Below, in pieces: positions 292-10,216 of a DNA stretch of 10,216 bases. A program made the translations under genes and the position numbers. This DNA is from a virus (lineage: Duplodnaviria > Heunggongvirae > Uroviricota > Caudoviricetes): positions 1 to 10,216 of the IMG/VR virus record IMGVR_UViG_2869924733_000001; one strand, 5' to 3'. A model generated the notes under the pieces. That model was not told the DNA's origin. It ran no database searches and was given only the letters and a program-made list of their open reading frames with translations. Within the stretch, counting starts at the first letter, position 1. Each line of letters opens with the position of its first letter.

Positions 292-336
292 GGCCTCCGT
301 GGTGATGGAAAACAATGCCGTAATTGTGGCGGGTCC

Positions 337-394
337 TTCCTGGAAAATGAAACACCGGGGGTAGCCATACGCGCAAAAACGCGCTGTTTATGAG
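337..394 (+). repeat. cos-like inverted repeat copy A (palindrome TTCCTGGAA plus 45-bp core GAAACACCG-N13-GCGCAAAAACGCGCT-GTTTATGA)
   Basis: Core at 349-393 matches copy B (1076-1120, opposite orientation) at 9/9 + 15/15 + 7/8 positions with identical spacing; palindrome at 337-345. Confidence 0.4.
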
Positions 395-463
395 ATTTTT
401 TGAGGGGGTGGTTGTTGTTTAATTGTTTGTTATATCCATTTGATAACTAAGAGAAAACTGAAA

Positions 464-560
464 GCAATACAACAACCTGAGGACGTTTTTTTGATGTTAT
501 GGTTCCCAAAATACCAATTAAATCAAATGGTTTAACAAAAATACGCGGTTGTTGTATTGC
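464..560. repeat. Perfect 14-bp inverted repeat GGTTGTTGTATTGC (464-477 inverted, 547-560 direct) flanking a 69-bp AT-rich spacer; related GGTTGTTGT at 410-418
   Basis: Read directly from sequence; lies immediately downstream of the Nu1-like gene stop (568); on the minus-strand RNA the stem would be followed by a U-rich run. Confidence 0.4.
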
Positions 561-567
561 ATACTTA

Positions 568-1008
568 TTAGCTTTCCTGCTCTGTAACTACAGATTGTTG
601 CAGATGCTCACGGCGAACGGCTACGGCATGACGCCACCCAGCCAGAAAGCCAGCCATTTTATTTCGTGCCTTGCTCACATCTTCCGGCGAGTAGCCGTAA
701 ATCTGCAGACCATTATCAAATCGCTGTTCTGTTTCTTCACTGAAATACTCGTCGCGCTCTGATGAAATCAACCTGGCAACCATAATCTTTTCCAGTGCGC
801 TGGTTTCTCCGTGGTACTCAATAGCATCAAGATGACTTTTACCCATGCACCAGAATAATGTGTGTCCGATGTGATAACCGCCGGACTTTCCGCGATCCGC
901 ATCAAGATACGGCATGCCCTGTTTGGTCCATGCGCGAATAGTGGTTCTGTTGACCTTGAAATGTTCTGCTATTTCCTGCTGACTAACAAAACAATCTTTA
1001 TTATTCAT
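568..1008 (-). CDS. Nu1-type small terminase-like winged-HTH DNA-packaging protein (candidate packaging-redirecting protein)
   Basis: N-terminus FVSQQEIAEHFKVNRTTIRAWTKQGMPYL aligns with lambda Nu1 VNKKQLADIFGASIRTIQNWQEQGMPVL (recalled reference); C-terminal half unlike Nu1; ATG at 1008 with AAGG 9 nt upstream; 146 aa. Confidence 0.65.
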   Translation of the reverse strand: MNNKDCFVSQQEIAEHFKVNRTTIRAWTKQGMPYLDADRGKSGGYHIGHTLFWCMGKSHLDAIEYHGETSALEKIMVARLISSERDEYFSEETEQRFDNGLQIYGYSPEDVSKARNKMAGFLAGWRHAVAVRREHLQQSVVTEQES

Positions 1009-1998: not shown

Positions 1999-3054
1999 TT
2001 ATTTCACTTCGACGGTAACAAAGCGACCAATATCCACGGGTACTGGCTGCGGGGCGCTGTGCGTCTGCACGTATTCAATCGCCGGATCGCCCGGTACGAT
2101 ATAATTTTTCGGGTAGTACATCCCCTCAGAAAACCCCTCGCGTGCCGCGTCCTGATCCATGATGGCACCATAAGCAACAAGGCCTTTATTTTCGGTATTG
2201 CCGAAAACCATCATGTTTTGTTTCAGGAAATATTGCTGCTGCCCGTCTTCGTCGTCATAACGACCGGAATAAACCACGAGCGCCACATCACCGAGATACC
2301 CCTTGAAGCTGACAACACCGCCCAAATCTTTTAGCGCAAGTTCAAGTGACGAGTTTGAACCGCGGCGCGTGTCCAGGAGTTCGCGGAATCGACGGAACGA
2401 GCGCAAAATACGCCAGGCTTCGCCACCCATGACGATAATATTTACCGTACCTTTGGAAAAATCAGCGTAAGCCTCAATGTCGCTTATCGGATCAAACGTC
2501 TCGGCATCCTGTTTTGACCATTCTTTCCCGCCAGCCTGTGTAATGTGATTGGTTGCGGGTAATCCCCAGTCAATTTCATAACGCTCGATGCCTTCGCCTT
2601 CGATAACGTTCCTGCCTTTTGTGATGGCATTGACCGCCAGCCATTCAATACGTGCTTTGATGGCAGTGATCTGTTTTTTCTGGCTGTCGTGAACCATTTT
2701 TACGCGGCGTAGTGCCGGGGAAGACTGACCATTGCCGATCTGTTCTCCAGCCATGCGCATGATTGTTTTAGTGGGATCAATAACGTGTTTGGGCTTCATA
2801 TAACCCGGCGTGAAAGTGTTCGTTGTAAAACCTTTGTCACGCATAACCTGACTGCCTGACATTGGTGAACAAAACGGACTCATGACCACGTTTTCAATGT
2901 CCAGCGTATCAAGCGCAATATCTCGCGTACTGAACGTGGCGATATTCGGAAAAAACAGCGTCGTAAAGAGCGGATTAAATTTAAATTCCGGCACATCTTC
3001 GCGCCCGATATTTTTCAGTAGCGTTGGTGTGCTTACCAGTTGCAGCGCTGTCAT
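1999..3054 (-). CDS. Major capsid protein, lambda gpE family
   Basis: 351 aa; long collinear similarity to lambda gpE along the whole length (e.g. FKFNPLF, TFTPGYMKPKH, NHITQAGGKEWSKQDAETFDPISDIEAYA, LDTRRGSNSSLE, DVALVVYSG, YPKNYIVPGDPA, QTHSAP), roughly 45-50 percent identity by eye. Confidence 0.9.
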   Translation of the reverse strand: MTALQLVSTPTLLKNIGREDVPEFKFNPLFTTLFFPNIATFSTRDIALDTLDIENVVMSPFCSPMSGSQVMRDKGFTTNTFTPGYMKPKHVIDPTKTIMRMAGEQIGNGQSSPALRRVKMVHDSQKKQITAIKARIEWLAVNAITKGRNVIEGEGIERYEIDWGLPATNHITQAGGKEWSKQDAETFDPISDIEAYADFSKGTVNIIVMGGEAWRILRSFRRFRELLDTRRGSNSSLELALKDLGGVVSFKGYLGDVALVVYSGRYDDEDGQQQYFLKQNMMVFGNTENKGLVAYGAIMDQDAAREGFSEGMYYPKNYIVPGDPAIEYVQTHSAPQPVPVDIGRFVTVEVK

Positions 3055-3342: not shown

Positions 3343-3439
3343 CAATTGACTGTTATTGCAAATCATGAAATCATCATGCCGTGGTTTTAATCCTTGTACC
3401 ACAGAGTCATTCAGCATTAATCACGTTAGCGGTATGAAA

Positions 3440-3471
3440 TCCCCCGGAACCTCATCCCGGGGGATTTTTTT
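3440..3471 (+). terminator. Plus-strand intrinsic terminator hairpin (half of a bidirectional pair)
   Basis: 8-bp stem UCCCCCGG / CCGGGGGA, 9-nt loop, followed by T7 (3465-3471). Confidence 0.45.
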
Positions 3472-3475
3472 GCGC

Positions 3476-3503
3476 ACAAAAAAGCCGGGAAAAATCCCGG
3501 CTT
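3476..3503 (-). terminator. Minus-strand intrinsic terminator ending the replication/SSB operon
   Basis: 9-bp stem AAGCCGGGA / UCCCGGCUU with 4-nt loop, followed on the minus strand by UUUUGU; 15 nt downstream of the SSB stop. Confidence 0.55.
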
Positions 3504-3517
3504 CTGTCACTCGTTGC

Positions 3518-3940
3518 TTAAAACGATATGTTATCCCCGTACGGGGCATCATTTCCCGCCTGTTGTTTTGCCCTGTTCAGTGCGTCAGTAGCCTGGCCCT
3601 GCTGGCCTTTTTTGCCGCCCGGTCGCGCCGTTCGCGCACTGATTACGCTGTCTGCGATAACCTGCCAGCCCTGCCGCGTTTCGCCGTTCTGGCCTGTCCA
3701 CTGGCTTACCTGTATGTTACCCGCCACGCTCACCAGTTCGCCTTTGTGGTGTCTGGCCAGTGCGTCGGCCTGTCTGCCAAACGCCAGGACGGATAACCAC
3801 ATCGTCGCCGTTCCGTCATCGGCCTGGCTGCACGGCAGGGGAACCGCCATACTCGCCATCGCCATTTGTGTCCCTTTGCTGGTGGTCTTTAACTGCGGGT
3901 CAGCCACCAGCCGCCCGTAAGCCGCTATCTGTGCTGTCAT
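3518..3940 (-). CDS. ssb: Single-stranded DNA-binding protein (SSB-like, OB fold)
   Basis: N-terminal GRLVADPQLKTTSKGTQMA resembles the SSB motif; conserved W and G-x-V positions; Gly/Gln-rich linker; acidic C-terminal tip DAPYGDNISF comparable to DDDIPF of E. coli SSB; ATGA overlap with upstream ORF. Confidence 0.7.
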   Translation of the reverse strand: MTAQIAAYGRLVADPQLKTTSKGTQMAMASMAVPLPCSQADDGTATMWLSVLAFGRQADALARHHKGELVSVAGNIQVSQWTGQNGETRQGWQVIADSVISARTARPGGKKGQQGQATDALNRAKQQAGNDAPYGDNISF

Positions 3941-4197: not shown

Positions 4198-4391
4198 CTC
4201 CCCACTTTTACTACCCACTTTTTGAAATTACCCAACGTCTCCCCACTTCTTTTTTTTGTGATTCTAACGTGATGTTTTTCAATGTATTTTTTATTCCCCA
4301 CTTTTTGGGGTATATACAGGTGAGAAAGTGGGGAATCGCGTTTCAATTTTGTTAAATTCCCCGCACTCCCCACTTTTACTACCCACTTTTT
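4198..4391. repeat. Iteron array, putative replication origin: 26-bp perfect direct repeat CTCCCCACTTTTACTACCCACTTTTT (4198-4223 and 4366-4391) plus further CCCACTT copies
   Basis: Seven copies of CCCACTT(T) (six direct, one inverted at 4327-4333) in about 195 bp; inverted pair CCCCACTTT / AAAGTGGGG flanks AT-rich GGTATATACAGG; immediately 3' of the replication protein gene. Confidence 0.5.
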
Positions 4392-5805
4392 ACAGTGGGC
4401 GCACGTCATCACCGTCAATAGCAATAACGCCATCACCTTCCAGCTTGTACAGCCAGCGCCGGAAGTGTTTCATCTCATACCCCAGCTTTTTCATATCATC
4501 GCGCAACAACGGAATTGTGCATTTATCGCCGCGCTGTGTGCGTGAACGGATACAGCCCCATAGCGCGGCATGATTCTCCGTCTTGTTCCCGGCTTCCTCG
4601 ATGCGCTCCAGTTCAACGGGTGGGCGCGGTTTATCCACAACCACCAGCGACGTGATTAACTCCCCGTCAGTGTCGGTAAAAAGCTCCACCACACGTAAAT
4701 CGTATGCAGCCTCTTTCAGTTCCTCCGCGTCCTTCATTTTGGTGCAGGAGATAACCAGGGCTTCACTGTCTGCACCTTCACGGCGAATACGGTATTCAGC
4801 GTCCAGAGATGCACGAAATGCACTGGAACCACGCGCTCCCTTTGTTTCATCCTTGCCGGAATGGTGAACCACCAGCACCGTGGACCCTGTGCGTCGTTTC
4901 AGTTCGTCACATCCACGGATAAACGCCCCCATATCCCGCGCGTCATTTTCATCATTACCGCCAAAACACCGCGCCAGCGTATCCAGAATAATCATGCGTA
5001 CCGGTTTACCCGTTTCCCTTTCAACCTGGCGGGAAGCGATGACCATTTCATCGACATCAAGCGGGACTGCCGGAAAAATCGGGCGGTTTACCAGGTACAG
5101 ATTTTCCACCCGTTTATCATTAACGATTTCCCATGCCTTGATACGGCGGGGGACACCAATGCCACCTTCACCGACAACATACATCACCGAACCATGCGCC
5201 ACCCTGCGGCCTCCCCAGTGGCGACCCGTGGCAACATGACACGCCCAGGAACACGCGAGGAACGATTTATAGGAACCGCTCGCGCCGTATGTGCTACACA
5301 ATGAATTAGCCGGAATCACGCCTTTAACGACATAATCAAGCTGTGTGTCGTACCCTGCAGATCCAATGCTCATTGGTAGCGTGGTTTTTCGCTGGCTGTA
5401 TTGCTCGTCAGTAAGAATTTCCCCGCGCTCTGCCTGTTCGCGGATCCGTTGCAGGTAGTCGTGCCAGTTCTCCAGCTTCTGGCTGTGCATTCCATCAGGG
5501 TAATAATTCGCATCCCGTACACCTGCCGCCGCCAGCTTTTGCCCGATAGCATTAATATTTGACGGCTTGATGTGGCCTGCCTTGTACAGCCGGACACAAT
5601 AGCGACCATCGTCGATAATTTTCAGGTCTGCCAGTTCGTCAAGCTGGCTGTCTCCAAGCCATACAGGCGGAACATTGTCGCCAGCAAGTCGCCCGTCCTG
5701 CTCCTGCCATTGTTTCGCGTGCGCCCAGGCATCACTACCCGCAAAAATAATGACTTCGGTCATTTTGTCGTGTGGCTGTTTTTTTAAGTTCGGTGCCAGT
5801 TTCAT
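4390..5805 (-). CDS. Replication protein: primase/helicase-type, RecA-fold (AAA_25 / RepA-like) ATPase with N-terminal toprim-like region and C-terminal putative DNA-binding region
   Basis: Walker A YGASGSYKSF, Walker B VRMIILDTLA, and LVVHHSGKDETKGARGSSAFRASLDAEY typical of RepA/DnaB-like helicases; ATG at 5805 with AGGGG 9 nt upstream; ATGA overlap with upstream ORF. Confidence 0.85.
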   Translation of the reverse strand: MKLAPNLKKQPHDKMTEVIIFAGSDAWAHAKQWQEQDGRLAGDNVPPVWLGDSQLDELADLKIIDDGRYCVRLYKAGHIKPSNINAIGQKLAAAGVRDANYYPDGMHSQKLENWHDYLQRIREQAERGEILTDEQYSQRKTTLPMSIGSAGYDTQLDYVVKGVIPANSLCSTYGASGSYKSFLACSWACHVATGRHWGGRRVAHGSVMYVVGEGGIGVPRRIKAWEIVNDKRVENLYLVNRPIFPAVPLDVDEMVIASRQVERETGKPVRMIILDTLARCFGGNDENDARDMGAFIRGCDELKRRTGSTVLVVHHSGKDETKGARGSSAFRASLDAEYRIRREGADSEALVISCTKMKDAEELKEAAYDLRVVELFTDTDGELITSLVVVDKPRPPVELERIEEAGNKTENHAALWGCIRSRTQRGDKCTIPLLRDDMKKLGYEMKHFRRWLYKLEGDGVIAIDGDDVRPL

Positions 5806-6101
5806 TTTGTGCCCCTGAATGCGTTAATCATGTTTTTCATTTTCTGAATATTTGCCCGTGCCTTTGCGTTGCTGGTGGGCTGTCTGCGTGGTGTGGCCTG
5901 TACCAGCGAAAAATCACGCCGGAACTGATAAACAGGCATCACGCAGTCATAGCCGTACCCATCACGGCGGTAAGTAACGCACCGTCCCGCCACGCTTTTA
6001 ATCGTTACCGTGCCGCCGTAGTTATCCCGGAAAATATCGCCGGGGCGGATTTCAGGCCGAGCGGGGCCGCTGGCAGTAAAGCCAGAATTTTTCTGTTTCA
6101 T
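5802..6101 (-). CDS. Hypothetical protein (99 aa), replication operon
   Basis: GAGGAA RBS 9 nt upstream of ATG 6101; stop overlaps primase start. Confidence 0.5.
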   Translation of the reverse strand: MKQKNSGFTASGPARPEIRPGDIFRDNYGGTVTIKSVAGRCVTYRRDGYGYDCVMPVYQFRRDFSLVQATPRRQPTSNAKARANIQKMKNMINAFRGTK

Positions 6102-6106
6102 GGTTT

Positions 6107-6316
6107 TTATTCCTCTGCGCGGGTCTTGTCGTGTATTTCCATAACCGCGTTTAATTCATCAATAACCGGGGTTAACAGAGTGCTGAAAGCAGAAAATAAA
6201 TCCCCCCCCTGTTCGGCATGAACTTCGGTTAATTTAATTAATACCGCTTTCATTTCCAGTGCCCGGTTTAATGCATTCTCAGAATGAATAAGAACATCGA
6301 AAGGGATTTCATTCAT
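6107..6316 (-). CDS. Hypothetical protein (69 aa), replication operon; contains a G8 tract
   Basis: GGAGG 9-10 nt upstream of ATG 6316; coding-strand G8 at 6202-6209 encodes QGGD. Confidence 0.5.
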   Translation of the reverse strand: MNEIPFDVLIHSENALNRALEMKAVLIKLTEVHAEQGGDLFSAFSTLLTPVIDELNAVMEIHDKTRAEE

Positions 6317-6569
6317 GGCTCACCACCTCCGGGAATTTTCTTCTGTAACGCGCCTCTGCAACATATTCCGCATAGTCCGACGCAATATTGAGAATCTCCG
6401 CACCCTCTGACCTGTAGCCACTGGTATTGATAAGAAAAAATGCGGCTTTTATCATGTCAGCAACGCCCAACAATGCGTCTGCTTCGTGTTCCGGTGCGCC
6501 ATCAAATTCCTGTTTCAGGGCATTAAAACGATCATCACGCATAACCCCCCCCATTTTCACAATCAGCAA
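6309..6569 (-). CDS. Hypothetical protein (up to 86 aa; start uncertain: 6569, 6554 or 6542)
   Basis: ORF from track; candidate starts overlap the end of the upstream Icd-like ORF and a G8 tract (6545-6552); 8-nt overlap with downstream ORF start. Confidence 0.4.
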   Translation of the reverse strand: MLIVKMGGVMRDDRFNALKQEFDGAPEHEADALLGVADMIKAAFFLINTSGYRSEGAEILNIASDYAEYVAEARYRRKFPEVVSHE

Positions 6570-6969
6570 TCAGAATGGCTTTGGCCTCATTCAGTGCCAT
6601 ATCAGCGGTAAGCTGTGCGTAGGCCAGCGAATGCGGGATTATTGCCCCTGTATATTCCGGCTCTCTGGTAATGTGTTTTTCTGCGGTTGCTGCCGTGTGT
6701 GAAATATCAATCAGCGCGCGCATCAGTGTTTTGATGGCTTCGGCGGCTGCGTCCGGACGGGTGTTATTGCACATGGTGCACCCCTGACGAATACGGGCGG
6801 CGAATACCATCACACAGCCATCAGGAGATTGCTGGCGTGCTTCCTGTTCGCTGGTGGCCTCAATGGTAATCACGCGCGGTTGTGCTGTGCTCAGGGCGAT
6901 AAAACGCCAGATGTATTTATTCAGGTTGTGCGAGTCCCGCCCTTGCGGGTGTGTGGTATGATTTCTCAT
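6535..6969 (-). CDS. Icd-like protein (P4-type host cell division inhibitor family, tentative), first gene of the leftward operon
   Basis: ATG at 6969 with GAGG 5 nt upstream; N-terminus MRNHTTHPQGRDSHNLNKYIWRF...FAARIRQG resembles Icd-like proteins of P4-type prophages (from memory); it is the 3' part of the spurious 476-aa track ORF. Confidence 0.45.
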   Translation of the reverse strand: MRNHTTHPQGRDSHNLNKYIWRFIALSTAQPRVITIEATSEQEARQQSPDGCVMVFAARIRQGCTMCNNTRPDAAAEAIKTLMRALIDISHTAATAEKHITREPEYTGAIIPHSLAYAQLTADMALNEAKAILIADCENGGGYA

Positions 6970-7064
6970 AGCTACCTCGATACTCTCGTTATCGTTGGTG
7001 GTTAGAAGCCCGTTGGTGTTGGTAGCACCTGCGGGCTTTGTCTTTTCATCGATTACCTCAATAA

Positions 7065-7148
7065 AGGTGTCAGCCACTATACTAGTAACAGGTGTCAGCC
7101 ACGTCAATAGTGTTTTTCCATTTTCTTGTGTGTATACTGTCAGCCACC
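7065..7148. promoter_or_regulatory. Divergent promoter/operator region with three copies of (A)GGTGTCAGCCAC
   Basis: Repeats at 7065-7077, 7090-7102 and 7137-7148; leftward promoter -35 TTGACG (7102-7107) / -10 TAGTAT (7079-7084), 17-bp spacer, with repeats in the spacer and at +1; rightward -10 TATACT (7133-7138) abutting repeat 3. Confidence 0.55.
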
Positions 7149-7168
7149 TAATAACAAGGAAATCAGAT

Positions 7169-7348
7169 ATGGCAACGAAAGCAGTTAATGGAAAATCCAA
7201 AAAACTTGAGGCACGAGTCCCCCATGCAATAGCTGACGCTGTAGAAAATTTAAAGGAAGAAGGTGAAAGCACTGGGCAATTTATCGTTTCGGCACTTGAA
7301 GGCGAGATCAAACGCCGCCAGCGTCGCAAGGCCAAAGAGCAGGAGTAA
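7169..7348 (+). CDS. Ribbon-helix-helix (CopG/Arc-like) DNA-binding protein, candidate repressor of the switch
   Basis: 59 aa; AAGGAA RBS 7 nt upstream of ATG; beta-strand KKLEARVP then two helices (HAIADAVENLKEEG, STGQFIVSALEGEI), basic tail; only convincing plus-strand gene. Confidence 0.6.
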   Translation: MATKAVNGKSKKLEARVPHAIADAVENLKEEGESTGQFIVSALEGEIKRRQRRKAKEQE

Positions 7349-7405
7349 CCATCACCAGCGCCGTGGTGTGAGTAACTACGGCGCATTGCTATGCAGGACA
7401 ACACA

Positions 7406-7558
7406 ATGACCGATAAAGAATTGACCAAAACATTATCACCGGCACGGAAAAGACGGCGCAGAAAGATAGAACATGAATCAGAAAGATTCGCGCCATGTGC
7501 TTTTGCCCTCGAGCAATTCCTTAAAGAGTACAGGGAAAAGCGCTCATTGCAGGTATGA
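7406..7558 (+). CDS. Small basic ORF (50 aa), possibly co-transcribed with the RHH gene
   Basis: ATG 7406 with AGGA 7 nt upstream; protein MTDKELTKTLSPARKRRRRK...; below the track length cut-off; followed by a plus-strand terminator about 100 nt downstream. Confidence 0.3.
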   Translation: MTDKELTKTLSPARKRRRRKIEHESERFAPCAFALEQFLKEYREKRSLQV

Positions 7559-7658
7559 CAACGAACTGAACCAGACTGATTGCATTGCCCACCAGCCGCA
7601 AATGTGGCATTGTTGGCGATGCTCATGCGTTGGGGATAACGCGAAATTTGTGTCGCAG

Positions 7659-7686
7659 GGCCACCGTGACTGGTGGCCTTTTCTTT
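7659..7686 (+). terminator. Plus-strand intrinsic terminator (end of RHH / small ORF transcript)
   Basis: 7-bp GC-rich stem GGCCACC / GGTGGCC, 6-nt loop, followed by TTTTCTTT. Confidence 0.55.
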
Positions 7687-7739
7687 ACCTGTTATCCGGC
7701 AATAGTGGCGCTTCTTCACACAGTTGATATAATTCCCCT

Positions 7740-7810
7740 GCACTGATCCAATTTTTTCGCAGCAGGTTAATTGTTCGCAAGGGCGCTCCGGTAACGGGGC
7801 GCTTTTTGTT
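7740..7810 (+). ncRNA. Candidate small RNA (about 70 nt) between a consensus extended -10 promoter and an intrinsic terminator, convergent with alpA
   Basis: TGaTATAAT at 7725-7733 (-10 hexamer matches consensus 6/6); terminator stem GCGCTCCG / CGGGGCGC with GTAA loop (7783-7802) plus TTTTTGTT (7803-7810); no ORF in between. Confidence 0.35.
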
Positions 7811-7828
7811 ATGTGCATCGCTCCCCCC

Positions 7829-8041
7829 TTACGCCGTTTGCGTCCTGCGAGTGGATGCAAGATAAGCATCGAGATCAGAGCGCATATACAGCACTTTGCG
7901 CCCCAGCTTATGGAAAGGGATTTTTTCTTTACCAGTACACGCCCAGTTAGCAAGAGTCTGGACACTTACCCCCAAATGCTCGGCGGCTTCTTTGCGGGTC
8001 ATTTTTTCTTGAGAATTGATTACGTTCACAAGTAACTCCAC
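7829..8041 (-). CDS. alpA: AlpA / excisionase-family HTH DNA-binding protein
   Basis: MTRKEAAEHLGVSVQTLANW...KIPFHKLGRKVLYMRSDLDAYL matches the excisionase/AlpA HTH pattern; track start is GTG 8041 (AGGT RBS), alternative ATG at 8002. Confidence 0.75.
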   Translation of the reverse strand: MELLVNVINSQEKMTRKEAAEHLGVSVQTLANWACTGKEKIPFHKLGRKVLYMRSDLDAYLASTRRTQTA

Positions 8042-8112
8042 GTATTACCTATTGTTACCGTGAGCTACTTTAGTTTTTTGCTGTGGGGGCGGTAAGGTGA
8101 AAAGCTGATTTT

Positions 8113-8161
8113 CCCAGGGGAAAGCAGGTAAGCCAGGGGAATAGCTGCTTTTACCCTGGCT
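8113..8161. promoter_or_regulatory. Direct repeats CCAGGGGAA(A/T)AGC(A/T)G (8114-8128, 8133-8147) with two mutually exclusive hairpins, between the AT-rich gene and alpA
   Basis: Stem A AAAGCAG / CTGCTTT (about 8120-8149) and stem B AGCCAGGG / CCCTGGCT (8131-8161) overlap, so only one can form. Confidence 0.3.
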
Positions 8162-8174
8162 GATAAAAAATTTT

Positions 8175-8795
8175 TTATGCGTACTCTGGCGGGATCACCA
8201 GTTCTGAGTTTTTGTACTTTTTGTCAGGTGGTGGCGGCGGGGCTAGTTTTTCACTTTTTATCCAGCACTTGATTGTTTCCTCGCTTATCCGGCCCTCATA
8301 TCGACGCGACAGCTTCGCAATCATTTTTGTTTTGGATAGTGCTGGTTCTTTCTTCCATGTGGCTTTCATGATGGCGACTATCTCATCATGTAAATAGTGG
8401 CGGGGACCGGAGGCGGCTTCACTTCTTCTTCTTTTGATAACACCATCAGATATTAATCTAATAACTTTGCCACCACCTTTTGAGGCTATACAGGCTCTTT
8501 TGTATACCCATGAAAGATCCTCAGCAGTATTTTTATATCCAAGTAGCTCTAGTATTAAGATGGATTTCAGAAATACATTAGCACTATGACCTATGTTTAT
8601 CTCCCCTGTTTTGTCTAACGCTAAATATCCTTCCTTATCAATCCTTGCTGCTATTCTTTTCCTTTCTGCTTTTCTATAATATTTAAATTTATCTTTCAAT
8701 TCATACACATGCTCGCTCATTTCCTTTTCGACTTGCTCAAGATAATCATATAATTCAATTCTTGTATCATCATCCACTACATCCCAAACTTTCAT
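8175..8795 (-). CDS. Hypothetical protein (206 aa), AT-rich 5' half, translationally coupled to the integrase; candidate accessory/cargo gene
   Basis: ATG at 8795 overlaps the integrase TGA (ATGA); codons for about the first 110 aa lie in visibly AT-rich DNA (8460-8795) while the 3' half is of ordinary composition; proline run PPPPP near C-terminus; no family recognised. Confidence 0.6.
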   Translation of the reverse strand: MKVWDVVDDDTRIELYDYLEQVEKEMSEHVYELKDKFKYYRKAERKRIAARIDKEGYLALDKTGEINIGHSANVFLKSILILELLGYKNTAEDLSWVYKRACIASKGGGKVIRLISDGVIKRRRSEAASGPRHYLHDEIVAIMKATWKKEPALSKTKMIAKLSRRYEGRISEETIKCWIKSEKLAPPPPPDKKYKNSELVIPPEYA

Positions 8796-10216
8796 TTAGA
8801 CGATACCTCTAAATTTTTGTTTATGATTTTGAAAATTAATTGGCGTTTTTCATCATCACTCATGCTCTCCAGTGCAGAAAGCAATTGCGCATCAATAGAT
8901 TTTTTACTCTCCACCAGCCCGGCATGTTCCAGAATTGCCCGTTCTATCCGTGACGCTGGCTCCAGCAGTTCATCAGCACCAAAATGTAAATACCCCTGCG
9001 TTACGTCAGCACTTCTCATAGTGCGGTGATTCATCAGGCGCTTGAGGGTGTAATTACCCACGCCCACCAGTTCGGCAACCGTTCCGAACGTCCGGCGCGC
9101 ATCGTGCCATTTGAATGGTACAGGGGAGAGCATTTCATCGTTCGACTCTGGGACGGTAGCCGCGCTTATCCGGTCTATGATGTGCCGTGTTTCCTGAATC
9201 ACTCCCTTTGCTCCAGGAAACACCAGTACATCATCAGCGTTTTTTATTTTCAGCCTGCGGCGGAACATTTCCCGCAACGTATCGGTGATCGGTAGCTCGA
9301 GCGGATCCCCGTTTTTCGTGGTATCTATCCAGAAAAAACGACCGCCCATATTCACGCGATCCCACGTAAGGCCAAAAATTTCTGATTTTCTCAGTCCGGT
9401 AAAAAGTGCCATTTCCACGGCATCACATACCGTCACCGCTATATCATCCCTTTCCTGTTCGCCCTGGTCACGTACAGCAGCTACAGCAGCAAACCAGCGG
9501 GGAAAATCATGCAGGCGGATACGTTCCGTTTTTCTTACCGTTCCGTGCCACTGTCGTTTGGTACTCAGTACCAGCGTCGGCGGATCCGGTAAAAGAGTAT
9601 TACCCGCATCATCACGGTAATGATCATGCGCAAACCGACACACGGCACGCAGCGCACGCGCCCATAAATCGGCCTGTGCCTTGCTTCCTGTGCCAACCCC
9701 AGCCCGTAACGTGGTTTTATCAGCACCGAACCATACAGCCCCGTTTGTGACAGCCTTATGCCGCTGTTCCACCCGTTCGCGGGTAATACTGGCGAGGGTA
9801 TGGGCCATCCAGTCACCGGAATAATTCTGTAATATGCTGCGGTACTGTTTTTCTGTGGCGGGTTTCAGGCGGTGGCCACGATTTTTTATGTAGGCTTCAA
9901 GCGCCTCATTCAGCGTTATCATGGCCTTGTTGTTCGTGCGCTTCGCTATGTTCGGGTTTTTCCCCGTTGTGGCGACCTCTCCAAGGAGTTCCATAGCTTT
10001 AGCCCTGGCATTGTCCACACTCAGATCGGGAAAACGCCCCAGCGTTGCACGAATAAATTTTCCGTTACGCTTACGGGAAATGCAGAAACTTTTCACACCA
10101 GACGAACCCACACGGACACGCAGCCCGTTAACCTCCGTATCACCATATTCGACCTGTCCATGTTCCGGCGTTGGCAGTTCTGCAATTTTTACTTTAGAGA
10201 ATCTGAATAATTTCAC
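8792..10216 (-). CDS. int: Tyrosine recombinase / integrase (P4-type, N-terminal arm-binding domain); 5' end at window edge
   Basis: N-terminal arm-type domain (KIAELPTPEHG...GLRVRVGSSGVKSF...RATLGRFPDLSVDNARAKA); catalytic-domain motifs LRKSE, HDARRT, NHRT...GYLH; ORF starts with GTG at the last window base, so the true start may lie beyond. Confidence 0.9.
   Translation of the reverse strand: MKLFRFSKVKIAELPTPEHGQVEYGDTEVNGLRVRVGSSGVKSFCISRKRNGKFIRATLGRFPDLSVDNARAKAMELLGEVATTGKNPNIAKRTNNKAMITLNEALEAYIKNRGHRLKPATEKQYRSILQNYSGDWMAHTLASITRERVEQRHKAVTNGAVWFGADKTTLRAGVGTGSKAQADLWARALRAVCRFAHDHYRDDAGNTLLPDPPTLVLSTKRQWHGTVRKTERIRLHDFPRWFAAVAAVRDQGEQERDDIAVTVCDAVEMALFTGLRKSEIFGLTWDRVNMGGRFFWIDTTKNGDPLELPITDTLREMFRRRLKIKNADDVLVFPGAKGVIQETRHIIDRISAATVPESNDEMLSPVPFKWHDARRTFGTVAELVGVGNYTLKRLMNHRTMRSADVTQGYLHFGADELLEPASRIERAILEHAGLVESKKSIDAQLLSALESMSDDEKRQLIFKIINKNLEVSSK

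Follow-up and report, generated by a model that had tools for sequence, protein, structure and literature searches.

Gene X between int and alpA in enterobacterial PICI-type satellites: two exchangeable modules and a candidate regulator of alpA

The element and its integration zone

Here, we describe gene X, an unnamed gene between the integrase gene (int) and alpA of a satellite element in an IMG/VR virus record (IMGVR_UViG_2869924733_000001). The stretch of DNA analysed, referred to as the window, is 10,216 nt long, and its minus strand carries all of its genes (open reading frame list and Pfam). At its upper end lies a tyrosine integrase gene of 474 aa (8792..10216, minus strand; Pfam Arm-DNA-bind_3 and Phage_integrase), whose product has an arm-type DNA-binding domain, then a catalytic domain, and continues for ~70 aa past the catalytic Tyr, and whose homologues, at 74-97% identity, are found across Enterobacterales. 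It is followed by gene X (206 aa; 8175..8795, minus strand), an open reading frame under purifying selection with a family of 112 clusters at E<=1e-3, and by alpA (66 aa; 7829..8029, minus strand), recognised by Pfam HTH_17 (E 6e-13) and by annotated homologues. The longest alpA reading frame reaches 8041, and its start is probably the GTG at 8029, judging by homology with the ATG of related locus L002. Small minus-strand open reading frames separate alpA from a DUF4222 gene (5802-6101), after which come genes for an AAA_25 RepA-like helicase (4390-5805) and an SSB (3518-3940), then those for a major capsid protein of the lambda E type (1999-3054) and a decoration protein of the D type (1659-1988), and the gene of a 146-aa protein that has weak HTH matches only (568-1008), at the place of which relative L001 is annotated 'terminase small subunit'; all of these are likewise on the minus strand.

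Judged by its gene organisation, the window is a Gram-negative PICI-type satellite. The genes counted for this layout (Int, HTH_17, DUF4222, AAA_25 helicase, SSB, Phage_cap_E, HDPD and the 146-aa protein) all lie on one strand, and the features by which Gram-negative PICIs are recognised are present, namely unidirectional int, alpA and primase/helicase genes and a small number of captured capsid genes, tail and lysis genes being absent. The window matches the four-zone layout of Gram-negative PICIs (PMC10111431; PMC6092414), and its closest complete genomes are E. coli chromosomes.

The nearest relative, L001, is ~97% identical over int, X and alpA and has its replication module exchanged, with a D5_N-type primase (5585-7339) against the AAA_25 RepA-like helicase of the window (4390-5805); other relatives carry DUF927 in that slot. 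A 476-codon open frame on the minus strand (6535-7965) is improbably long by chance; its 3' part alone resembles Icd-like proteins annotated in relatives, and the rest, antisense to plus-strand open reading frames at 6995-7348 and 7391-7558, is probably non-coding. Between the SSB gene and the next open reading frame, the Rfam model of the Bacillus sRNA ncr1175 scores 37.5 bits (3434-3503, minus strand; E 7e-4), below its cut-off of 60, and this probably reflects chance or a structured terminator; the Rfam scan of the window returned no P4 CI-like, C4 or isrK RNA. A second low-GC stretch (0.34-0.41, window 300-600) lies just downstream of the 146-aa HTH gene (568-1008) and overlaps its 3' end. 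In the ~70-aa extension of the integrase past its catalytic Tyr (8792-9000), the motif SxSDDEKRxLIFxI is common to the window and loci L012-L014, and the last few residues of the extension alone fall in the variable AT-rich cassette described below.

Read directly from the sequence, the ATG of X (8795-8793) and the TGA of the integrase gene (8794-8792) form an ATGA overlap (8792..8795, minus strand) with GAGG 10 nt upstream, in agreement with the preliminary description of this DNA, which had X begin there as a 206-aa reading frame (8175-8795, minus strand). The two genes overlap or lie 1 nt apart in 9/10 loci first compared, and the same holds in further loci. The possibility that X is a spurious open reading frame was dropped on family conservation and a dN/dS of 0.05-0.15.

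Codons 1-117 of X (8445-8795) have a GC content of 0.33 (GC3 0.19-0.28), compared with 0.494 for the window and 0.506 for the integrase gene; 1.2% of the window's 351-nt stretches are as low in GC, and the lowest of them starts at 8498. Codons 118-206 have a GC content of 0.47 (GC3 0.42-0.54), which is the ordinary composition that had been ascribed to the 3' part of the gene. An AT-rich 5' part had likewise been seen correctly, but it makes up 57% of the gene and not two-thirds, and the AT-rich tract also covers the 3'-terminal ~100 nt of int (GC 0.34). The same description took this composition to mark a recently exchanged N-terminal domain on a conserved C-terminal region. The exchange itself is borne out by alignment to relatives (~40% against ~95% DNA identity), but AT-richness does not mark one recent import: the N-terminal coding part has a GC content of 0.30-0.35 in 9/10 variants examined, whatever their class, and is therefore AT-rich as a standing property of that segment. 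AT-richness as the trace of one recent foreign import was dropped, being common to nearly all variants.

The X family and its two reassorting modules

In curated libraries X has no recognisable family, as had been noted before, but a coherent uncharacterised family (112 clusters) does exist. Pfam gave only a sub-threshold match of X to HTH_32 (PF13565; aa 122-178, 19.9 bits against a cut-off of 33.7, E 1.1e-3), NCBIfam gave no match, PHROGs gave only a non-significant one (E 0.68) and PADLOC-DB v2 gave 0 families at E<=1; no Pfam domain was found in the N-terminal parts of ten distant members. Searches of PDB sequences with a profile of the whole family and with one of the isolated C-domain returned nothing significant (best match, Ku70 SAP domain, E 0.5). 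No match to X was found in phage records by tblastn, and a literature search found no mention of the family. A word-indexed search yielded 24 clusters, all 'hypothetical', from Escherichia, Salmonella and Citrobacter, and an exhaustive profile search yielded the 112 representative clusters at E<=1e-3, 74 of which have E<=1e-10; a second homologue search with a broad X profile added few new members. Members are ~186-280 aa long, barring a few fragments and a 484-aa outlier (P0127), and are conserved from about position 65 to the C-terminus.

Related loci were sought with a close X alignment, giving three loci, and by scanning viral contigs, giving one locus for family member P0044 and none for P0100 and P0047. 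The order int, X, alpA is found in 24/24 X-bearing loci, which come from Escherichia, Salmonella, Citrobacter, Klebsiella, Enterobacter, Kluyvera, Raoultella, Lelliottia, Buttiauxella, Atlantibacter and metagenomes and share one layout: an integrase of 468-499 aa, X overlapping or abutting it, ~100-185 nt of intergenic DNA and an HTH_17 alpA. The replication gene differs among them (D5_N primase, AAA_25, DUF927), as do the late genes. Loci found through X are a biased sample, so independently found ones matter. X is present in 6/6 E. coli loci retrieved with int or flanking sequence, with an insert of matching size in 30 records among the matches listed, and in 4/5 loci of other genera found through Int homologues (75-77% identity); the X proteins of the Klebsiella, Enterobacter, Buttiauxella and Atlantibacter loci match the family HMM at E 1e-41 to 3e-56. 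As 10/11 relatives found without using X carry it, X is a near-constant part of the integration zone in its Int clade. The int-adjacent slot had been described as a known hotspot for anti-phage systems in P4-like satellites and PICIs; it holds the same family in these ten relatives, and the sole exception, Xenorhabdus locus L024, is empty, with the same Int type, no X and int leading straight to alpA. X is dispensable in at least this one lineage.

A second case concerns EcCICFT073, which is phage-inducible (PMC6092414) and in which int seems to lead straight to alpA without X, going by the gene numbering in the same paper. The island was sought in the CFT073 genome at 1.39-1.44 Mb, where a lambdoid prophage was found instead, so that the absence of X from EcCICFT073 is read from that published numbering alone. 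With X missing from the Xenorhabdus locus and apparently from EcCICFT073, X is not a universal route of induction.

Sliding DNA identity between the window and L002 (E. coli 47-1826) is ~95% in alpA, the intergenic region and the C-terminal part of X, ~40% over 8421-8840, and again ~95% in int. The exchanged AT-rich cassette (8421..8840, minus strand; ~40% identity to L002, GC 0.33-0.34) thus takes in the last ~15 int codons and the X N-domain. In protein identity, the C-terminal 89 residues of the same pair stand at 85% and the N-terminal 117 residues at 22%. A second N-domain swap separates L016 from L017, with N-domains 29% and C-domains 89% identical, identical AlpA and an almost identical intergenic region. 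The 25 close X members fall into nine N-domain classes; among them, one C-domain class (>=80% identity) is joined to five N-domain classes, and some N-domain classes are paired with more than one C-domain class. X is therefore made of two modules that reassort. With dN/dS of 0.11 for the N-domain within a class (L012 vs L013) and 0.05-0.15 for the C-domain, both domains are under purifying selection and the N-domain is not decaying.

AlphaFold2, run with the family alignment, predicts X to be all-helical (pLDDT 77.9). The hypervariable N-domain (aa 1-117; 8445..8795, minus strand), delimited from AlphaFold2, N-domain classes, dN/dS and charge, falls in a region of predicted helices at 9-37, 42-54, 68-84 and 88-128; it is acidic in 89% of members, with a net charge of 0 in the window copy. 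The C-domain core (aa 132-181; 8253..8402, minus strand) is a predicted compact, HTH-like unit of three helices (132-149, 155-165 and 172-181), the three helices appearing in both structure models, and the C-domain is basic in 105/105 members (net charge +3 to +15, median +8). It is followed by a conserved, predicted-disordered tail (aa 182-206; 8178..8252, minus strand; LAPPPPPDKKYKNSELVIPPEYA) of no predicted secondary structure, with a pLDDT of ~67-72 against ~80 in the helical core. The tail pattern, PPxPxKYxxFxLV(I/F)P, ranks with the most highly conserved segments of the family and looks like a short docking motif for a partner. Across 105 sequences T146, W147, P151, W178, P186 and L199 are invariant or nearly so, the last two, in the tail, being conserved in >=90% of members.

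Sub-threshold HTH_32 matches occur in 16/25 close members (E<=0.1), and the 484-aa outlier P0127, which has four tandem copies of the C-domain HTH unit, passes the HTH_32 cut-off with 36.1 bits and so provides a transitive link from the X family to HTH_32. Each single test on X itself stays below its formal threshold; together they point to the C-domain being a small DNA-binding module. X has no match to an HTH_3/XRE-type HTH, its sole HTH-like region being C-terminal, nor to HTH_17 or Phage_AlpA, which the adjoining 66-aa gene matches at HTH_17 E 6e-13. P0127 is also the sole family member of different architecture, with weak restriction-endonuclease-like matches in its N-terminal region.

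Gene X had been put forward as a candidate cargo or defence gene, a reasonable starting point given that PICI immune systems are placed at the 5' end in the literature (PMC11364771). As an anti-phage defence or interference protein, X would be expressed from the quiescent island and would recognise phage proteins through its variable N-domain; an N-domain that is hypervariable, AT-rich and exchanged between elements would fit this, as would expression together with int in the quiescent state and the 5'-end immune systems that PICIs can carry (PMC11364771). We nevertheless regard a defence role as quite improbable. The slot always holds the same family and not alternating cargo, PADLOC has no match, neither Pfam nor the predicted structure reveals an enzymatic, effector or membrane domain, X is absent from the phage records searched, and the conserved half resembles a DNA-binding module with cognate repeats beside a regulatory gene.

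Repeats and a predicted hairpin in front of alpA

Just past the X stop codon, a motif search with shuffles located a repeat array (8093..8159). It consists of three direct GCT(A/T)TTCCCCTGG-like units at an exact spacing of 20 nt (8133-8145, 8113-8125 and 8093-8105) and an inverted copy of the unit (8147-8159), which together with the first direct copy makes up a palindrome (8131-8161). Within these 67 nt (8093-8159) fall 6/14 of the loose motif matches of the whole window, and the repeat content of the first 95 nt past the X stop is above that of all 300 shuffles; across loci, repeat enrichment is significant in only ~6/11 by what is a crude measure. At this position other loci also carry repeats, phased in roughly the same way but differing in motif. 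Class A (GCTATTCCCCTGG) is found in the window, L001, L002, L007 and L008, with related forms in L004, L006 and L012-L014; class B (AACCAGAT..ATCTGGTT) in L003, L011, L018, L020, L022, L023 and L026; class C (TATCCGGATAA) in L009 and L010; and class D (CTGGCTATT) in L016, L017 and L019, with related forms in L015 and L025. The repeats were also considered as integrase arm sites, and this was dropped since they lie ~2 kb from the element end.

The repeat motif class tracks the C-domain class of X and not AlpA or Int. L003 and the window are 95% identical in Int and AlpA, with X C-domains 27% identical and unrelated repeats; L003 and L011 have C-domains of the same class (54% identity) and related repeats, with Int 61% and AlpA 68% identical. 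The class B palindrome is kept in E. coli, Klebsiella, Enterobacter and Atlantibacter, on Int proteins ~75% identical to that of the window. By sequence comparison, protein class and adjoining motif class change together between conserved flanks, as in an immunity-type cassette; because the repeats adjoin the C-domain coding part, this co-variation could partly reflect linkage in the swapped block. The X recognition helix is rather conserved across classes with different motifs, which counts against a repeat-specific reading.

As to the sites at which these classes are found, the E. coli loci L003 and L016-L020 share one Int backbone (91-99% identity) and one chromosomal position beside nfeF, and carry between them two C-domain/repeat classes (B and D). 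Class A, rare at 3/5426 complete genomes, is borne on an Int backbone close to that one (95-97% identical); in L001 and L002, the loci whose flank was seen, it sits at another site, near ypjC.

An array of direct, phased repeats adjoining a gene whose product is small and basic and probably binds DNA is reminiscent of the partition sites of plasmids, and X could bind it as a site akin to a centromere or to iterons, serving to maintain or package the satellite DNA once excised. We consider this very improbable: there is no partner ATPase, the repeats always precede alpA, and the primase gene of PICIs has the origin downstream of it (PMC6092414, PMC10111431).

The repeats bear also on the view of X as an accessory factor of the integrase, made in a fixed ratio with Int, acting as an architectural or directionality protein and docking its tail on Int like the tail of lambda Xis. 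The conserved overlap with int, the co-occurrence of X with one Int clade, the conserved disordered C-terminal peptide and a swapped block that takes in the last int codons all speak for such a role. We nonetheless think it improbable, as the repeats, ~2.1 kb from the int-proximal element end, are too far away for att arm sites, the adjoining AlpA (HTH_17) is already of an excisionase-type family (PMC10111431), L024 has the same Int type and no X, and the last few Int residues alone vary with the cassette.

Closer to alpA, per-sequence folding predicts an inverted repeat or hairpin (8030..8070, minus strand) with the alpA Shine-Dalgarno sequence GGAG in its 3' arm. A -10-like TAAAGT (8067-8072) abuts its 5' arm, and the hairpin ends next to the likely GTG start at 8029. 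It is predicted in 11-12/13 loci with differing arm sequences, such as GUAGCUCC/GGAGCUAC, CCUCACCG/CGGUGAGG and AUCACCAU/AUGGUGAU, and compensatory changes are seen in 4/8 hairpin pairs in a first alignment. L024, which is without X, has no obvious equivalent in this region when read by eye. A promoter scan called no minus-strand sigma-70 site in the X-alpA intergenic region, so where the repeats lie with respect to the alpA promoter is presumed. We hypothesise that the hairpin may keep alpA from being translated on transcripts that read through from int and X: these would fold back and hide the alpA ribosome-binding site, and transcripts from an alpA promoter inside the 5' arm would escape the folding. 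Read-through silencing by a hairpin of this logic is known from IS10 and IS50.

Proposed role of X and related systems

X is a core gene with a syntenic place, and the repeats past its stop codon co-vary with its C-domain class, as expected where a regulator and its sites are exchanged as one. Our preferred reading, to which we give somewhat less than an even chance, is that X is the core sequence-specific regulator of alpA in the int-X-alpA module of enterobacterial PICI-type satellites, carried in an exchangeable cassette. X would be made together with Int in the quiescent state, and its basic, C-terminal HTH-like domain would bind the 20-nt-phased repeats past its own stop codon. The repeats would lie over and upstream of the alpA promoter region, and bound X would set the expression of AlpA, most likely by repression; we infer that X binds DNA, where it binds and in which sense it regulates. 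AlpA is the known master activator of the PICI cycle, and the helper phage turns on alpA (PMC6092414). X and its sites would form an exchangeable cassette like a phage immunity region, and the acidic, hypervariable N-domain would be a module that can be exchanged by itself and that confers specificity in oligomerisation or in sensing a signal, possibly a helper-phage protein. That the N-domain classes are discrete and selectively maintained suggests different partners, possibly helper-phage proteins, as with Stl.

A bolder version, which is speculative as to helper sensing and which we judge unlikely as a whole, has X sense the helper phage and act as master repressor in a large clade of Gram-negative PICIs, as a functional analogue of Stl built of unrelated parts, with N-domain classes corresponding to inducing phages and C-domain/operator classes to immunity groups. 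A helper-phage protein would bind the N-domain and free X from the phased operators before alpA.

The immunity side of this reading can also be taken by itself. X could be an immunity or incompatibility determinant between related satellites only, shutting down alpA of same-class elements that enter the cell or already reside in it, with no helper sensing, the N-domain classes serving to prevent mixed oligomers. This resembles lambdoid heteroimmunity, there being at least four C-domain/repeat classes on near-identical Int backbones, and related copies number up to 5 in some E. coli genomes. Nothing counts directly against it, and it overlaps with the regulator reading; still, N-domain classes change on a constant DNA-binding class, which would leave cross-regulation of co-resident elements intact, and as the sole function of X it seems rather improbable.

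How the helper phage activates alpA, and whether Gram-negative PICIs have a repressor, was stated to be open in 2018, the difference from Gram-positive islands being called 'a mystery' (PMC6092414). As a regulator of alpA, the unnamed but conserved X sits where the missing alpA-controlling factor would be expected, and it makes the question of alpA control directly testable. If the proposed explanation is right, X would account for helper specificity and immunity groups in widespread enterobacterial satellites and would represent a new protein family; if X is merely a local regulator, it is still a clean example of two-level modular exchange within one small gene.

Among known systems, X can be compared with the Stl/Rpr repressors of SaPIs and Gram-positive PICIs, which likewise are satellite genes in the int transcription unit, highly divergent among elements, that encode a DNA-binding protein (in X, a predicted one) beside the genes starting the satellite cycle. 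The proposed logic is also alike, in that quiescent repression is lifted by a helper-phage protein (PMC6092414). X differs from Stl/Rpr in having no sequence relationship to them, in an HTH that is C-terminal and HTH_32-like and not N-terminal and of XRE type, in its translational coupling to int, and in being co-directional with alpA and the rest of the island, whereas Stl/Rpr are divergent from the genes that they repress. Like lambdoid imm regions, X is replaced en bloc together with the repeats downstream of it, int and alpA on either side being conserved (window vs L003), and it falls into discrete classes, each with a repeat motif of its own; unlike them, X is not homologous to CI or Cro, has no divergent promoter pair and shows a second, nested exchange of the N-domain alone.

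HTH_32 (PF13565) is the homeodomain-like second HTH of IS630/Tc1-type transposases, to which aa 122-178 of X have a weak profile similarity with the pattern S-x3-(M/I)-x2-L ... (V/I)S-x2-T(L/I)-x2-W(I/L)K over three predicted helices; X stays below the curated cut-off, is without a transposase domain and has the extra conserved PPxP...F-x-LVIP tail. With the AlpA/Vis/excisionase-type HTH_17 proteins of P4-like elements and PICIs, X has in common that it is a small protein, predicted to bind DNA, whose gene adjoins int in the integration zone, but it is of another family, three times larger and of two domains, and the true HTH_17 gene is the next one downstream.
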